A stretch of 64,000 nt of DNA from Methyloceanibacter sp. (GTDB taxonomy: Bacteria > Pseudomonadota > Alphaproteobacteria > Rhizobiales > Methyloligellaceae), in the NCBI GenBank assembly GCA_036559585.1, contig DATBSU010000029.1:239-64238 (forward strand). The letters run 5' to 3'. The notes under the pieces are model-generated. The model ran no database searches. It worked only from the letters and a program-made list of their open reading frames with translations, and had not been told where the DNA came from. The position numbers and the translations under genes were made by a program. This document shows, piece after piece, positions 44,342 to 52,601 of this stretch. The stretch's first letter is position 1; the number at the start of each line of letters is the position of its first letter.

Positions 44342-45847
44342 ATGATCAATCGGCTTATTCTTGCCTTTGTGGCGCTGCTGGCGCTGCCCGGCACATCGAA
44401 CGCTACCGCGGAAGATCGCTTCGCGCTTGTTCTTGGCAATTCAAATTACGAGGGGGTTTCGGCGCTGCCGAATCCCACCAAAGATGCCAAGGCCGTCAAA
44501 GCCATGCTGGAGGAGGCCAATTTCGAGGTTGATGCCGCGCTCGATCTCGGCCAGTCCGACATGCTTGGCGCGGTGCGCGACTTCGCCGGCAAGCTCTCCG
44601 ACAAGGACAAGGATAGCGTGGCGCTGATCTATTTCGCCGGCCACGGCATCCAGATCGACGGCGAGAACTATCTCATCCCAGTCGATGCCAAGATCACACA
44701 AGCCGAAGACGTGCCGCTCGAAGCCGTCCGTCTCGCCGATGTCATGAATCTGATGTCTGCCGTGCCGAGCAAGACAAGGATCGTCATCCTCGATGCTTGC
44801 CGCAACGATCCCTTCAAGGAAATTGCGAAATCGACCGGCCGCGGTCTTGCCATCGTCAATGCACCGGAAGGTTCCATCGTTGCCTATTCGACCTCGCCGG
44901 GCTCGGTCGCCGAAGACGGAACCGGCAACAACAGTCCCTTTACCGCGGCCTTCATCAAGCAGGCCAAAGTGCCGGGCGCTGAGATCGGCACCGTGTTTCA
45001 GAATGTCCGTCTCGCCGTGCACCAATCGACCGAGGGCCGCCAGACCCCGTGGGAGATCACCGCGCTGACCGAACCCTTCGCCTTCTTCCCTGGCGATGGC
45101 GAGATCAAACCACAAGAGCCGGAAAAATCCGAAGCTGAATGGCGCAAAGATCTCAAGTCGCGCTCTGCCGACGAGGCCTATGACATCGTGATCCACGAGG
45201 ACAACGTCATCGTCTATCAGCTGTTCCTCGTGCTGTTCCCCGACGCGCCTCAGATCGGCGGCATCACTATCATCCTCGACCGCCGGCTGGAGATGTTTGC
45301 CTGGTTCGACGCGGTGCGGCTGAACTCGGTGCTGGCTTACGAAGCTTTCCTCGCCCGCTATCCGAATAGCGATCTCGCACCGACCGCAAAGCGGCTGGAG
45401 GAGCGCGCTCGCGAGCTCGCCGACGAAGCCAACAGCTTTCCTGACGCCGTTCGCATCGCCGAGAAGCCCGAGATCAGGACCGTCATCAAGGAAGTTCCGG
45501 TCGAAAAGCTCGTGACCAAGGAAGTGATCAAAGAGGTTCCGGTCGAGGTGATCAAAGAAGTGAAAGTGCCCTTCGAGGTCATCAAGGAAGTCCCGGTCGA
45601 GAAGATCGTCGTCAAGGAAGTCCCGGTGGAGAAGATCGTCACCAAGGAAGTCATCAAAGAGGTGAGAGTCCCTGTCGAGAAGATCGTGGTCAAAGAGGTC
45701 AGGGTCCCGGTCGAGAAGATCGTGATCAAAGAAGTGAAGGTGCCGGTCCGCATTCCCTGCAATTGCGGCGGCGGCGGCGGAGATGGCGGCGGCAGCGGCA
45801 AAGGTGGCAAAGGTGGCAAAGGCCGCGGCCACAACATTCCCCGCTAA
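44342..45847 (+). CDS. Exported caspase-family (peptidase C14) protein with VPV-repeat tail
   Basis: Signal peptide; ALVLGNSNY, LPNP, FAGHG, LDACR, SPFT, QTPW; C-terminal EVPVEKIVVK repeats. Confidence 0.92.
   Translation: MINRLILAFVALLALPGTSNATAEDRFALVLGNSNYEGVSALPNPTKDAKAVKAMLEEANFEVDAALDLGQSDMLGAVRDFAGKLSDKDKDSVALIYFAGHGIQIDGENYLIPVDAKITQAEDVPLEAVRLADVMNLMSAVPSKTRIVILDACRNDPFKEIAKSTGRGLAIVNAPEGSIVAYSTSPGSVAEDGTGNNSPFTAAFIKQAKVPGAEIGTVFQNVRLAVHQSTEGRQTPWEITALTEPFAFFPGDGEIKPQEPEKSEAEWRKDLKSRSADEAYDIVIHEDNVIVYQLFLVLFPDAPQIGGITIILDRRLEMFAWFDAVRLNSVLAYEAFLARYPNSDLAPTAKRLEERARELADEANSFPDAVRIAEKPEIRTVIKEVPVEKLVTKEVIKEVPVEVIKEVKVPFEVIKEVPVEKIVVKEVPVEKIVTKEVIKEVRVPVEKIVVKEVRVPVEKIVIKEVKVPVRIPCNCGGGGGDGGGSGKGGKGGKGRGHNIPR
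45481..45760 (+). repeat. Intragenic low-complexity repeat (KEVPVEKIVV)
   Basis: Recurrent AAGGAAGTcCCGGTCGAGAAGATCGTC units; eight VP[VF] motifs. Confidence 0.9.
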
Positions 45848-47971: not shown

Positions 47972-48718
47972 TCACGCGCTCAGGCGCTCCAACACGTCGT
48001 CGGCGATTTCGAAATTGGCATAGACGTTCTGCACATCATCGGAGTCTTCGAGCGTCTCGATCATGCGGAGCAGCTTCTGCGCGCCCTCTTCCTCGACGGG
48101 CACGCCGCTCTTCGCTCGCCACAGAATGCGCGCCCCGCGTGGCTCGCCAAACTTGGCTTCGAGGACCTTGCCAACCTGATGCAACTGGTCGGGATCGCAA
48201 TAGACGTAGTGCCCGTCCCCATCCGACTCCACATCCTCCGCTCCCGCCTCGATCGCGGCTTCGAGCATGGTGTCGGCGGTGGCCTTGTCGGCATCGAACT
48301 CGATGGCGCCGAGCTTGTCGAAATTGAACGAGACCGCGCCGGTCTCGCCAAGATTGCCGCCGAACTTGCTGAAGATCGAGCGCACCTCGCTCGCGGTTCG
48401 GTTCCGGTTATCGGTCAAGGTCTCGACGATCACGCCCACCCCGCCCGCGCCGAAGCCTTCGTAGCGGACCTCCTCGTAGTTTGCCCCACCGGCTTCCCCG
48501 CTCTTCTTGATGGCCCGCTCAATATTGTCCCTCGGCATGTTCTGGGCACGCGCGGTCTGGACCGCGCCCCTGAGGCGCGCGTTCATGGCGGGGTCCGGCA
48601 GGCCCATCTTGGCCGCCGCAGTGATTTCGCGGGCGAGCTTGGAGAAAAGCTTGGAGCGCTTTTTGTCCTGCGCCCCTTTGCGGAACTGAATATTCTTGAA
48701 CTTCGAATGCCCTGCCAT
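47972..48718 (-). CDS. yebC: YebC/PmpR family protein
   Basis: [36 protein letters not shown]. Confidence 0.97.
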
Positions 48719-48926
48719 GTCCCTGCCCGTCGATACCCTCTTTTCGCAAGTCCGGACTTATAGAAGCGGGGCGGCCCAAAATCCATGGCAATACGGCGCG
48801 TTTGCAGGCCATGTGCGTCGGCCGGCCAGAGCCACCGCTACAATATCATTAGCGTGTCCTTAACCCTGTCGGACCACAACATTCACATCGCGTACCGTGT
48901 CGTCAGTCGGAGGGGGGGGAAAATCC

Positions 48927-49178
48927 ATGCTGCGCAAGGCGAGTATGACTGCCGCTATTAGCAAATCTGAACCCGAACGCCTGACCAGACTCTCGGACCT
49001 CTGCAGCGAGGCTGCCGGGCACGTGGCCAGGGCCCGTATGGCCCTTAATGTCGAGACCTTCGACACCGATCAGGCGCTGGCCCATCTCGACGATGCCATC
49101 GGTTGTCTTCGGCGGCTTCTGGCGCACAGCAAGACCGGGCGACAGGCTGCCACGGTGCACACACTCCGCAGCGCCTGA
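48927..49178 (+). CDS. Small helical hypothetical protein
   Basis: GGAG-G8 RBS-like run upstream; 83-aa ORF filling the intergenic gap. Confidence 0.55.
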   Translation: MLRKASMTAAISKSEPERLTRLSDLCSEAAGHVARARMALNVETFDTDQALAHLDDAIGCLRRLLAHSKTGRQAATVHTLRSA

Positions 49179-49198
49179 CCAAGCGGCCTCACGCAACG

Positions 49199-50110
49199 TC
49201 AACGTCTGAAAAACGCTCGGCAGCGTCGGAATAATCGTTTCCAGACGCTCCTCGGGTGCCGACGCGCCTGCAACGCCTTGCTCTTGGCAGGGCGCCAGTT
49301 TGGGCTTGCGCTGACATCATTCTCGCCAAAAATCGTCGCGTAGAACGCGGGCAGCTCACCGCGACGGTCTAAATGATGAATGACGTTGTGCCTATCGCTG
49401 TTGATTTTGAGCTCGATGCAATCTGGGAGCACAGCCCTCAGCGCCGCATGCCGCTCGACGTCTAGTGAATGTCCGGTGGAAAACGCGGTCACTAAAGGCA
49501 CGTATCCACTCGGGCGGCAATGGCAGAGAAGATCAAACGCACGGACCTCGTCTGAGCCTCGCAGAAGTCGCGGCGGATGCGAGCAGAACGCGCCCCCAAT
49601 ACTGACGGCACGGTCTGCTCCGAGCCACAGTCCAGCCCTCAACGCGGGGAAACCTCCCATGCTCGTGCCGTAAGTGATGAGCCTGCGATAGCTCCTGGTG
49701 TCACTCAAGGCTTTGATGCGGATGAGGGTCTCAAGCAGAGAATTTGAATAACCCTGAATGCCCGCGTCGTGATGCCGTCGCTGCGCATCCGTGATCACCA
49801 GCACGTCGTAGAAATCATCCGGCATCATCTGCAGAAAATGAGAAATCGGCTTCATCAGGCGATGACTGGCGCCGCCGAACCCAACGATCAGCGTGCGAGC
49901 ACCGCGATGAGCCGAATAAAGCCGAACGTCTTGGTTCAGTTCCTCTCGGAGGTAGCGGGTGGGCGGCGACACCCGAAGCAAAGGCGCGATAGCAAAAGGC
50001 AGATGTTGGTGCGTTGGATTTCGCAACAACTCCGCGATTTCAAGCGGCGTCCGTGAATTGTCTAACGGCGCTGTCTGCGCCGCTAGGCGGCTGAAGACGG
50101 GCGCGCTCAT
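49199..50110 (-). CDS. Alpha/beta-hydrolase-fold protein
   Basis: GxSxG nucleophile elbow YGTSMGG, candidate Asp and late His (DRHN); ATGA-coupled to ACP. Confidence 0.72.
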   Translation of the reverse strand: MSAPVFSRLAAQTAPLDNSRTPLEIAELLRNPTHQHLPFAIAPLLRVSPPTRYLREELNQDVRLYSAHRGARTLIVGFGGASHRLMKPISHFLQMMPDDFYDVLVITDAQRRHHDAGIQGYSNSLLETLIRIKALSDTRSYRRLITYGTSMGGFPALRAGLWLGADRAVSIGGAFCSHPPRLLRGSDEVRAFDLLCHCRPSGYVPLVTAFSTGHSLDVERHAALRAVLPDCIELKINSDRHNVIHHLDRRGELPAFYATIFGENDVSASPNWRPAKSKALQARRHPRSVWKRLFRRCRAFFRR

Positions 50111-50367
50111 TTCTTGGCAGAAATGATCAGCGCTGCAAGCTCTCCGAGAGTCCGGCACGAATTCACTTCGGCCTCGTCGAGCTCGACTTCATAGGCGCTC
50201 TCGACCCGCATGACAAAATCGAGAAGCATGAGACTATCCACGTCGAACGACTCCATTGGCTCGGCCAAGAGTCTTGCGTCATCCCATGACGTCACAGGCA
50301 CAGTATGAGCATTGCCGACCGCCTCGCGGAAGAGATTTGCGCAGTGCTGTTCGATCGAGTCAGGCAT
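50107..50367 (-). CDS. Acyl carrier protein
   Basis: 86 aa, acidic; DSL phosphopantetheine site (VDSLMLLDFVMRVESAYEVEL) and TLGEL. Confidence 0.85.
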   Translation of the reverse strand: MPDSIEQHCANLFREAVGNAHTVPVTSWDDARLLAEPMESFDVDSLMLLDFVMRVESAYEVELDEAEVNSCRTLGELAALIISAKK

Positions 50368-51394
50368 CCAGGCGGGCCACGATACTGGAATAATAGGTGA
50401 AGACCCAGTCAGGCTTCCGCCGCGTCGCGCTCTCGATGACGCAAACGAGCGGAATGCGCGAGAGTTCTGCGGCAACCGTCCGCCACAGCCAGGTCGACAG
50501 CTCCTCACCGATGCAGGAATGGCGTCCTTTGCCGAAATACGGGCGCTCTTCGCCGTCGTCTGGACCGCCTGCATCGAGATAGAGCCGCACTCGATCCCCT
50601 GTTTTGATCGTCGCGCCGTCGACCGAGCAGTCCCTGACTGCGAACCGCTCGACATAGGGCACGCCCGTCACTGGCAGTTCGCCCGGAAACGCGAGATCGC
50701 AAAGCCTCTCGCCTTCGCTTTGTTGCAACACATGCAGGAGAGAGCAGCCGAGCGATCCCACAATTGAGTCATAACCAACCATGCTTAGTGCCACGGCATA
50801 GTCCGGAGACGTCTTAAGGGTTTCGCTCGCGGCGTAGGCCTCCAGCATGGCTTCCGCCTTCTCGTTGATCTTCCGCCGCCGATTCAGCCCGAGATAGAGA
50901 TCGAAAATCTGCGAGGCCGACACATCATTTGACGAATTTGCTGGGCGTGCCGCACCAAGGATCCCGACAAAAACCGCATCGCAAACCGGAATGATGAGAT
51001 CTTGCACCAGATCAACCCGCACCGCGGGGTGGCAGATTGCGGCTACCAGGTCTCGCACAACCACCGCGGTGCGTTGCTTCGTTGCATCCATGTTCGCAAA
51101 TAACACCCTCGCCAAAGCGGCCCGGCACTTGGCATGGTGCGGCCCCTCGTTCGCGGTGGGGGAATGCTCGAAAATGTGGATGAGTGTGGAGCAATCAATG
51201 CCCACTCTCTGCTCCAGGAGCCGGTGAATCTCGGCGAAATCGGCGGCCGCAAAGTCGTTCGACTTCAGGATCGCGGAAATTGTGTTCGCGCCGAACACAC
51301 ACCAGCAACCTAGTGCAGGAACCCAGTCGATCGTCGGACAGCGGGGCCGATCGGGCTGTTCGCGAGGATCGTGTCCCAGAAGAGGCAATGACAT
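50360..51394 (-). CDS. Atypical short cytochrome P450
   Basis: Heme motif FGKGRHSCIG; EGPHHAKCR (C-helix HxxxR); I-helix VGYDS; R.AVRD..VDG.TIKTGD.V beta region; no ExxR. Confidence 0.85.
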   Translation of the reverse strand: MSLPLLGHDPREQPDRPRCPTIDWVPALGCWCVFGANTISAILKSNDFAAADFAEIHRLLEQRVGIDCSTLIHIFEHSPTANEGPHHAKCRAALARVLFANMDATKQRTAVVVRDLVAAICHPAVRVDLVQDLIIPVCDAVFVGILGAARPANSSNDVSASQIFDLYLGLNRRRKINEKAEAMLEAYAASETLKTSPDYAVALSMVGYDSIVGSLGCSLLHVLQQSEGERLCDLAFPGELPVTGVPYVERFAVRDCSVDGATIKTGDRVRLYLDAGGPDDGEERPYFGKGRHSCIGEELSTWLWRTVAAELSRIPLVCVIESATRRKPDWVFTYYSSIVARLDA

Positions 51395-51533
51395 GGCGCT
51401 ACTCGCTGCAAACGAACATCGAGGTAAAGGCAGCTATTAACGCGTGCCAACCCGATTGAATGGGGCCATGGCCCCGGCAAGCTTGTCAACTGGCTGCTGA
51501 CCGAGCTTATTTCTCAGTGGTTAGAGCTGGTTC

Positions 51534-52364
51534 CTAGGACGCTGGCCGCCAGAAACTCGGCTCCGCATGGGTGAGCTTGCCGCCGATCCGCAACGGCGCG
51601 ATGGCGCGCGCCAATCCTGTCGCATCGTCGGTCTCGATCGCGAACCCGCAGATAGTTGCTTCGCCGGAAGCCGGCTGAAACCGCTCGTTCGGAATTTTGC
51701 TCAAGAAGCGCTGCAACGGTTCGGCCTTGTCCATGCCGAGCACCGAATCGTAATCGCCGCACATTCCCGCATCGCTGATATAGGCGGTGCCTAGCGGCAG
51801 GATCTGCTCGTCCGCGGTCGGCACATGCGTGTGCGTTCCGATGACCGCGCTCACCCGGCCGTCCGCAAAATGACCCATCGCCTGCTTCTCGCTGGTGGCC
51901 TCGGCATGAAAGTCGATGAGGATGGCATCGGCGCCCCTTCCCAGTGGACAGGCTTCGACCTCTCTTGCGACAGCGCGGAACGGACAATCGATATCCGCCA
52001 TGAACACGCGGCCCATGGCATTCATGACCAGGACCTCACCGCCATTCGCCGCCTTGAATAGGCCCACGCCCCTGCCCGGCGCGCCGCTCGGAAAATTGAG
52101 CGGCCGCAGCAGACGGTCATGGCGCTCGATGAACACCAGCGTCTCGCGCTGATCCCAGACGTGATTGCCGGTCGTCACCACATCGGCGCCGGCATCGAGC
52201 AGCTCGGTCAAGATCTGTTCGGAAATGCCGAAACCCCCGGCGGCGTTCTCACCATTGACGACGACGAAGTCGAGGGAATAGCGATCGCGCAATCCGGGGA
52301 GCGCGGCGATCACCGCATTCCGGCCCGACCGCCCCACCAAATCACCGAGAAACAGGATACGCAT
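51534..52364 (-). CDS. ymdB: YmdB/TIGR00282-family metallophosphoesterase
   Basis: FLGDLVG, NGENAAGG, TGNH, DFHAEATSEK, GTHTHV. Confidence 0.95.
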   Translation of the reverse strand: MRILFLGDLVGRSGRNAVIAALPGLRDRYSLDFVVVNGENAAGGFGISEQILTELLDAGADVVTTGNHVWDQRETLVFIERHDRLLRPLNFPSGAPGRGVGLFKAANGGEVLVMNAMGRVFMADIDCPFRAVAREVEACPLGRGADAILIDFHAEATSEKQAMGHFADGRVSAVIGTHTHVPTADEQILPLGTAYISDAGMCGDYDSVLGMDKAEPLQRFLSKIPNERFQPASGEATICGFAIETDDATGLARAIAPLRIGGKLTHAEPSFWRPAS

Positions 52365-52407
52365 GCCGCACGTCTTATCCGGAAATTCTTTATGAGACCC
52401 ACACAAC

Positions 52408-52435
52408 AAAAGGGCCGGCTTGGAAACCGGCCCTT
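52408..52435 (-). terminator. Terminator downstream of 6S RNA
   Basis: Minus strand AAGGGCCGG-tttccaag-CCGGCCCTTTT. Confidence 0.7.
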
Positions 52436-52443
52436 GATGCAAG

Positions 52444-52601
52444 AGGCGAGGCCACGATGGCCGTCGGAGCGTGGATCCCTGGTTTACCCTACTATAGTAG
52501 GTGGGCACCGAGTGGCGGGGACCAAGGTCCCCGTCAGTGTCAGCTCCCTTAGGATCTTATAGGGCCCGGGGAAATTGCCCCTAACGCACCTCGCAGCCCG
52601 C
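52444..52601 (-). ncRNA. ssrS: 6S RNA
   Basis: Downstream of zapA; GCGAGG..CCTCGC closing stem; TTCCCCGGG..ATCCTAAGGGAGCTG..GGTGCCCACCTAC..CCAGGGATC; GCTATAGT -10 upstream. Ends approximate. Confidence 0.92.

Follow-up and report, generated by a model that had tools for sequence, protein, structure and literature searches.

The window examined here is a stretch of 64,000 nucleotides from Methyloceanibacter sp. (assembly GCA_036559585.1, contig DATBSU010000029.1, positions 239 to 64,238 of the forward strand), which contains on its minus strand a cassette of three co-oriented genes for a cytochrome P450-like protein, an acyl carrier protein (ACP) and an alpha/beta hydrolase. The assembly is a metagenome-assembled genome (MAG) of 2.14 Mb with a completeness of 83%. 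In an initial annotation the trio had been described as an orphan system by which an acyl group tethered to the carrier is oxidised and then released or transferred. This proved to be the best supported reading of the cassette, the support coming from synteny, from the fold and conserved residues of the P450-like protein, and from variant loci in other genomes.

The three genes and their products

The P450-like gene (50360-51394, minus strand) encodes a miniaturised cytochrome P450-like protein of 344 amino acids. It is followed on the same strand by the gene of a dedicated ACP of 86 amino acids with an isoelectric point (pI) of 4.25 (50107-50367) and by the gene of an unclassified Ser-Asp-His alpha/beta hydrolase of 303 amino acids with a pI of 10.4 (49199-50110), the last two products being oppositely charged. 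The open reading frames (ORFs) were recovered at these coordinates, and the two overlaps of stop and start codons that had been claimed for the trio were located as well: ATGCCTGA at 50367-50360 joins the P450-like gene to the ACP gene, and ATGA at 50110-50107 joins the ACP gene to the hydrolase gene. The three genes are predicted to be translationally coupled.

No Pfam or NCBIfam family could be assigned to the P450-like protein. Its score with PF00067 is 14.6 bits versus a threshold of 22.8, the best E value among 28 members of its family is 0.0044, and a PF00067 search of the genome at E<=0.001 left it undetected. Weak matches to NCBIfam P450 models at E 1e-5 include one to a model of P450-derived glycosyltransferase activators. 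The P450 fold became apparent from an AlphaFold2 model (pLDDT, the predicted local distance difference test, 87.5), for which Foldseek returned P450s as all of its top matches (E 7e-14). Structural alignment (VIA) placed 310-330 of the 344 residues on P450s with Z scores of 24-27.6. The best matches in that comparison were three complexes of BioI with acyl-ACP (Z 27.5-27.6, root-mean-square deviation 3.2, 320 residues), followed by CalO2 with 26.8 and the next entry with 25.8; the sequence identity to BioI (3ejb) is 18%. A profile of the family matched P450s among the PDB sequences at E 1e-11.

The residues expected of a heme-thiolate enzyme are largely in place. The cysteine loop FxxGxxxCxG reads FGKGRHSCIG, with F287, G288, G290, H292, C294 and G296 invariant in 28 homologues, so that the intact cysteine ligand named in the initial annotation was found as described. 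Further invariant residues are R250, H87, R91, G207 and D209. The acid-alcohol pair of the I-helix is present as VGYDS, in which S210 is kept in at least 90% of the homologues. H292, R250 and the C-helix residues H87 and R91 are the counterparts of those residues that usually contact the heme propionates. Among full-length P450s, the nearest relatives come from a Bauldia sp. (locus L021) and from genome G053 (locus L162). They have 401 amino acids and were found with profile E values of 1e-20 to 1e-22; they show EIFR or DLLR at the K-helix position and have about 12 more meander residues. Compared with them, the protein of the window lacks the ExxR motif, some 25 residues in the F/G region and these 12 or so meander residues. 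No fused longer P450 forms were found, which is weak evidence. The protein can be regarded as a highly reduced and probably heme-binding member of the superfamily outside the named CYP families.

The carrier matches PF00550 with 36 bits versus a cut-off of 20.8 (E 8e-9), in agreement with its description as a DSL-type ACP, and all 15 cassette ACPs that were compared have the serine attachment site in a D-S-L or D-S-M context. It matches ACP models and not those of peptidyl carrier proteins (PCPs), and its matches to AcpP models are weak and far below the cut-offs.

The hydrolase likewise belongs to no Pfam or NCBIfam family, and the window protein has no Pfam match at E<=1, the type II thioesterase profile PF00975 included; the only weak matches, to Hydrolase_4 and Abhydrolase_6, were obtained with 6-9 out of 40 members of its family. 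An AlphaFold2 model (pLDDT 87.2) showed the alpha/beta hydrolase fold, with esterases, BioJ, the thioesterase DcsB, acyl-protein thioesterases and an O-acetyltransferase tied at a Z of about 15. The GxSxG motif noted earlier is present as GTSMGG, and the catalytic triad S150, D217 and H241 stands in canonical order and is invariant in 40 homologues together with R158, C196 and C198. A comparison of the family profile with PDB sequences was discarded, as the nucleophile elbow alone was matched. The two invariant cysteines form a Cys-x-Cys pair (AFDLLCxC, residues 196 and 198) in a loop of low model confidence. Many homologues (P0150, P0152 and others) have a C-terminal extension of 60-90 amino acids that resembles a coiled coil, with an SWRVTxPLR-like motif at its end; the window protein has a short, very basic tail in its place. 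With 3,854 representatives at E<=1e-3 this family is much larger than that of the P450-like protein.

Synteny of the trio and history of the insert

Homologue searches yielded 118 close homologues of the P450-like protein, nearly all of 340-350 amino acids, and 81 of the hydrolase, and many members of the two sets lie on contigs of identical size. The order P450-ACP-hydrolase recurs at loci L003-L007, L010, L012, L014, L015, L017, L019, L020, L128 and L130-L133. Its carriers, many of them soil and marine Alphaproteobacteria, include Aminobacter, Mesorhizobium, Oricola, Bradyrhizobium, Methyloceanibacter and Aliigemmobacter as well as many MAGs. In a sample of 401 genomes of the order, some of which are related and therefore not independent, the P450-like gene was found in 8 and the hydrolase gene (E<1e-50) in 7, with both present and adjacent in 6; about 2% of the genomes of the order have the cassette. 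Its flanks (ABC-F, a restriction-modification system, LplA, SRP54 and others) differ from one genome to the next without being related, and the genes are therefore not fragments of a larger known biosynthetic gene cluster. Because this synteny recurs across many Hyphomicrobiales with unrelated flanks, the trio is a self-contained unit and not a fragment of a larger cluster.

Within the unit, P450 and ACP are the tightest pair; the tree shows several replacements of the third gene, which is mostly the hydrolase gene. An ACP gene adjoins the hydrolase gene at each of the 11 genome loci with a hydrolase match at E<1e-20, at some of them without a P450. A 428-amino-acid ORF 5' of the ACP-hydrolase pair in genome G316 was considered as a possible P450 and rejected, as it is not a P450 and looks spurious. 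A locus of genome G374 (L182, 4548-7619) has two tandem copies of the mini-P450 gene followed by one ACP gene, without a hydrolase gene. Culturable carriers of the cassette include Aminobacter niigataensis DSM 7050 and Mesorhizobium quangtriensis. No published description of the cassette was found in the literature searched, which was covered in part with terms on P450, ACP, ExxR, minimal P450s and the C-terminal motif, and the ESM Atlas returned 'hypothetical protein' clusters only.

Comparison with the closest relatives by blastn revealed that the whole cassette lies in an insertion or deletion unit of 2,372 bp (49176-51547, no strand assigned). In the closest relative, G063, the equivalents of 47972-49175 and 51548-52600 of the window are contiguous, 14 bp apart, and the extra DNA of the window corresponds exactly to the three genes together with the 153 bp that precede them. 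The order zapA-ymdB-orf99-yebC is common to relatives in the genus and is split by the insert in the window, in accordance with the proposal that the cassette interrupts the ymdB-yebC pair. Among the same-genus loci that extend far enough, ymdB and yebC are spaced by about 450 bp, in some cases with a small conserved ORF between them. The corresponding ORF of the window, orf99 (48903-49202, minus strand, 99 amino acids), lies between the hydrolase gene and yebC; no family could be assigned to it. Several cassette-free relatives have it between ymdB and yebC, conserved with 32-71% identity, and on this comparison it is to be counted to the ancestral locus and not to the insert.

Another close relative, G027, has kept the equivalent of 49176-49442 of the window, that is the 3' end of the hydrolase gene. 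This remnant (L099, 1153-1443) comprises the last 97 hydrolase codons at 61% identity and is located between ymdB and orf99. Since it is still there, the cassette was once present at this site and was later deleted. Elsewhere in the genus the cassette occurs in 4 of 36 genomes, each copy on another contig than ymdB and with 27-59% identity to the P450-like protein of the window. In the tree this latter protein groups with one from a Methyloceanibacter MAG, and that of the same-genus genome G030 with other families of the order. The copies on different contigs, their divergence, the tree position of G030 and the remnant in G027 taken together indicate that the cassette, which comes and goes as a unit, has been gained and lost repeatedly. 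No convincing terminal repeats, tRNA or integrase were seen to mark the insert, and no plasmid copy of the cassette was found.

The non-coding part of the insert upstream of the P450-like gene (51395-51547, minus strand) is a possible promoter or operator region and lies inside the insertion relative to G063. It contains TTGACA at 51489-51484; a consensus promoter scan called no coding-strand promoter in this part. Just after TTGACA, at 51475-51462 and 68 nt 5' of the P450 start, a perfect 14-nt palindrome, GGGGCCATGGCCCC, was noticed, which could serve as an operator or mark where the ymdB transcript ends.

The cassette had further been thought to look less GC-biased than its flanks. The G+C content at third codon positions, 0.64-0.68 in the cassette, is indeed modestly below that of the immediate flanks (ymdB 0.75, yebC 0.83, the glycosyltransferase family 2 (GT2) gene 0.74, zapA 0.70); other nearby genes are equally low (0.66-0.67), and the impression does not extend to them. 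The neighbouring ORFs that were scanned with Pfam comprise ruvAB, a metallophosphoesterase, an LTXXQ protein, the GT2, yebC, ymdB, zapA, an inositol monophosphatase and MotA/OmpA-like proteins, and three ORFs without a match. Among these, which are all but a few of the flanking ORFs, no ketosynthase, adenylation domain, phosphopantetheinyl transferase, synthase, ligase, ferredoxin or regulator was found, as had been noted before. The GT2 was considered as a partner of the cassette and ruled out, since it also adjoins yebC in the relative L105 and is thus ancestral context and not part of the insert. An ORF of 501 amino acids lies on the plus strand at 44342-45847, 3.4 kb from the cassette.

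Oxidation on the carrier and its alternatives

Clues to the function come from loci in which the cassette is varied. In a Flavobacteriaceae MAG (L008) the mini-P450 gene is followed by two tandem fusions of ACP and thioesterase (PF00550 plus PF00975; 1827-2918 and 2977-4095). The gene in third position at L009 and L011, which adjoins an ABC exporter, has a weak match to the LpxL-type lipid A acyl-ACP acyltransferases (PF03279, E 3e-4). Downstream of the cassette, L016 has genes for a GT61 and a pyruvyltransferase, and L018 one for a sulfotransferase. The nearest full-length P450 relatives stand in extended clusters (L021, 7273-12375; L162, 6041-13501), in which a hydrolase relative, a ligase of the fatty acyl-AMP ligase (FAAL) type, the P450, an ACP and a GT2 are found together, GT8 genes also being present in these clusters. 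The ligase matches FAAL, MbtM and FadD32 models at E 1e-82 to 1e-97. Next to L021 there are also a 1,491-amino-acid protein of unknown function and an autotransporter, and L162 has a further unknown protein of 364 amino acids. Because of these ACP-thioesterase fusions, the LpxL-like third gene and the clusters with FAAL and glycosyltransferase genes, the sequence of events suggested for the cassette is that a fatty acyl chain is bound to the carrier, oxidised by the P450 and then off-loaded.

In this scheme the AcpS encoded in the genome (G000:C41) would convert the 86-amino-acid ACP to its holo form. The ACP would then be charged with an acyl group, probably a fatty one. This would be done by an enzyme that is not part of the cassette, unless the hydrolase itself serves as a transacylase, which is possible. 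The small heme-thiolate P450 would dock on the acyl-ACP and oxidise the chain, most simply by hydroxylation, with electrons from ferredoxins encoded elsewhere; the genome encodes 2Fe-2S ferredoxin domains outside the cassette, and also two ordinary P450s. Finally, the strongly basic hydrolase with its triad Ser150-Asp217-His241 would attack the thioester on the strongly acidic ACP, and the oxidised acid would be released or handed to an acceptor. That the cassette is a self-contained accessory module which oxidises an acyl chain on its carrier and then off-loads it is the reading we prefer, and we put our confidence in it at about even. The anatomy of the genes, the two folds, the conservation of catalytic residues and of synteny, and the coming and going of the cassette as one piece are observations, whereas the binding of heme, an acyl group as substrate, the sequence of the reactions and the choice between hydrolysis and transfer are inferred.

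A number of findings weigh against it. There is no loading enzyme in the cassette: no AMP-binding or adenylation gene was found in it or among the scanned neighbouring ORFs, here or at other minimal loci, and in five host genomes no FAAL orthologue was found, only generic AMP-binding enzymes of 29-37% identity. No redox partner is linked to the cassette. The structural preference for BioI and CalO2 amounts to 1-2 Z units only, and the fold of the hydrolase leaves hydrolases and transferases undivided. The third gene is replaceable, and in some genomes (G030, G374) P450 and ACP occur alone. In the P450-like protein ExxR is absent, the K-helix region reading PGELPVTG with no conserved E or R; this proline-containing segment is non-helical, the model having no helix at residues 226-246, and the cysteine loop is modelled with a pLDDT below 50. 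Normally ExxR and the meander give stability to the heme core. Frameshifts occur in some of the copies within the genus (G016, G026 and G033), which may be due to long-read sequencing error. Classifying these copies as pseudogenes was rejected as unsafe, because the genomes look like long-read assemblies with low contig numbers and reduced completeness.

Among the alternatives the one that survives best retains the same carrier chemistry and takes the alpha/beta-fold protein for an acyltransferase acting onto an envelope lipid or polysaccharide, which might also load the ACP by transacylation. This would suit the LpxL-like acyltransferase beside an ABC exporter in third position at L009 and L011, the GT61, pyruvyltransferase and sulfotransferase genes downstream at L016 and L018, and the GT2 and GT8 genes of the extended clusters. 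A capsule O-acetyltransferase and a protein of the mycolyltransferase family are among the structural neighbours of the hydrolase, with Z scores equal to those of esterases, and association with a membrane would be compatible with its pI of 10.4 and basic C-terminal tail. The Flavobacteriaceae variant, however, has canonical thioesterase domains fused to the ACP, the window and most other loci are without co-travelling glycan or lipid genes, and no acceptor is apparent. We regard such a transfer as unlikely, if less so than the other alternatives. The initial annotation had likewise named an envelope lipid or glycan as a possible destination; the relatives located beside acyltransferase, glycosyltransferase, pyruvyltransferase and sulfotransferase genes hint at it, whereas the GT2 of the window, being ancestral context, does not.

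A more far-reaching proposal, which we put forward as a speculation with a rather small chance of being right, combines the heme-thiolate mini-P450 without an ExxR/ERR core, the private ACP and a basic alpha/beta-fold transacylase of a new class into an autonomous machine of three proteins. This would take an acyl chain from a lipid or other donor onto its own carrier, oxidise it there, and put it back on an envelope molecule or release it as a signal, with no ligase or synthase needed. If true, it would amount to a previously unknown mode of lipid editing that is traded horizontally among Alphaproteobacteria.

It is improbable in our view that the P450-like protein has neither heme nor catalytic activity any longer and instead supports the ACP-hydrolase pair as a chaperone or structural partner, or that the cassette is decaying. 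P450-derived glycosyltransferase helpers act as such structural partners or chaperones, and the missing ExxR, the shortened meander, the low-confidence cysteine loop, the score under the Pfam threshold, the frameshifted copies and the weak match to the P450-derived activator model could all be accommodated in this way. Yet the cysteine ligand, the four heme-propionate contacts and the GxDS motif remain invariant although members of the family have diverged to 28% identity, while the non-heme P450 derivatives known to us have lost the cysteine. The frameshifts are found in low-contig assemblies of reduced completeness, as long-read errors would give. Moreover, according to PMC3599690, which cites Rupasinghe et al. 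2006, the CYP157 P450s lack ExxR, so that this motif can be dispensable.

Two further explanations are very improbable. In the first the P450, in a BioI-like manner, would cut a long acyl-ACP so that a dicarboxylyl-ACP such as pimeloyl-ACP is formed, from which the hydrolase would liberate the diacid for use in biotin or another cofactor. BioI-acyl-ACP complexes are the top structural matches, and the hydrolase has the pimeloyl-ACP methyl ester esterase BioJ as one of its tied best matches, the one with the longest stretch covered. The identity to BioI of 18%, versus the at least 40% to the CYP107 family that is expected of a CYP107H enzyme, and the lack of biotin (bio) genes in or beside any of the annotated loci speak against it, and a patchy presence (about 2% of the order, 4 of 36 genomes of the genus, lost in the closest relatives) suits an accessory trait better than a pathway to a cofactor. 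In the second, which is of equally little weight and comes last, the carrier holds an aminoacyl, aryl or peptidyl group for an off-line hydroxylation of the OxyD/NikQ type, as the layout of P450, carrier protein and alpha/beta hydrolase in OxyD/BpsD/Bhp and the alpha-ketoglutarate (aKG)-HExxH-type peptide beta-hydroxylase encoded at L162 might suggest, but no adenylation domain is found in or near any cassette, the ligase of the extended relatives is FAAL-type, and the ACP-like D-S-L site belongs to a carrier matching ACP and not PCP models.

Significance and comparison with known systems

Should the P450-like protein prove to bind heme and to be catalytically active, it would rank with the smallest natural P450s, and the ExxR of the K-helix and most of the meander would be dispensable, which would be useful for understanding and engineering the P450 fold. 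The cassette would represent a compact, portable module for carrier-dependent oxidation with both of its enzymes outside the current family libraries. Knowledge of its substrate would annotate a sizeable block of proteins, since unnamed members of the hydrolase family number in the thousands, and might lead, in Hyphomicrobiales, to a new envelope modification or hydroxy-fatty-acid product. The culturable carriers make the question directly testable.

With CYP157 of Streptomyces the protein of the window shares a conserved cysteine ligand and the absence of ExxR (PMC3599690, citing Rupasinghe et al. 2006). CYP157 proteins are of normal length, have kept the K-helix (EQSLW) and are linked to conservons; the window protein has a non-helical, proline-containing K-helix region and is about 55 residues shorter.

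BioI (CYP107H1 of Bacillus subtilis), the best match of the model (Z 27.6), is like the proposed enzyme a soluble bacterial P450 which oxidises an ACP-bound fatty acyl chain. It differs in using the housekeeping AcpP, in being encoded in the bio operon, in having ExxR and a full meander in about 395 amino acids, and in having no dedicated ACP or hydrolase. The clusters with FAAL at L021 and L162 share with the cassette the hydrolase relative, the ACP and the P450, their P450s being the nearest full-length relatives. They are distinguished by the ligase and glycosyltransferases and by P450s of 401 amino acids with an E/DxxR K-helix and a full meander, and are themselves uncharacterised. In the trios OxyD/BpsD/Bhp, NikQ/NikP1 and NovI/NovH the substrate of the P450 is likewise bound to a stand-alone carrier, from which the product is set free by a thioesterase of alpha/beta fold (Bhp). 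There the substrate is an amino acid, loaded by an adenylation domain fused to the carrier, and the genes belong to large antibiotic clusters, whereas the cassette of the window has no adenylation domain, an ACP-like carrier, a housekeeping context, and a P450 and hydrolase of other, unnamed families. The cassette, with no loading enzyme of its own, was rightly called an orphan that fits neither the BioI nor the OxyD/NikQ precedent; it is an uncharacterised variant of carrier-dependent P450 tailoring.

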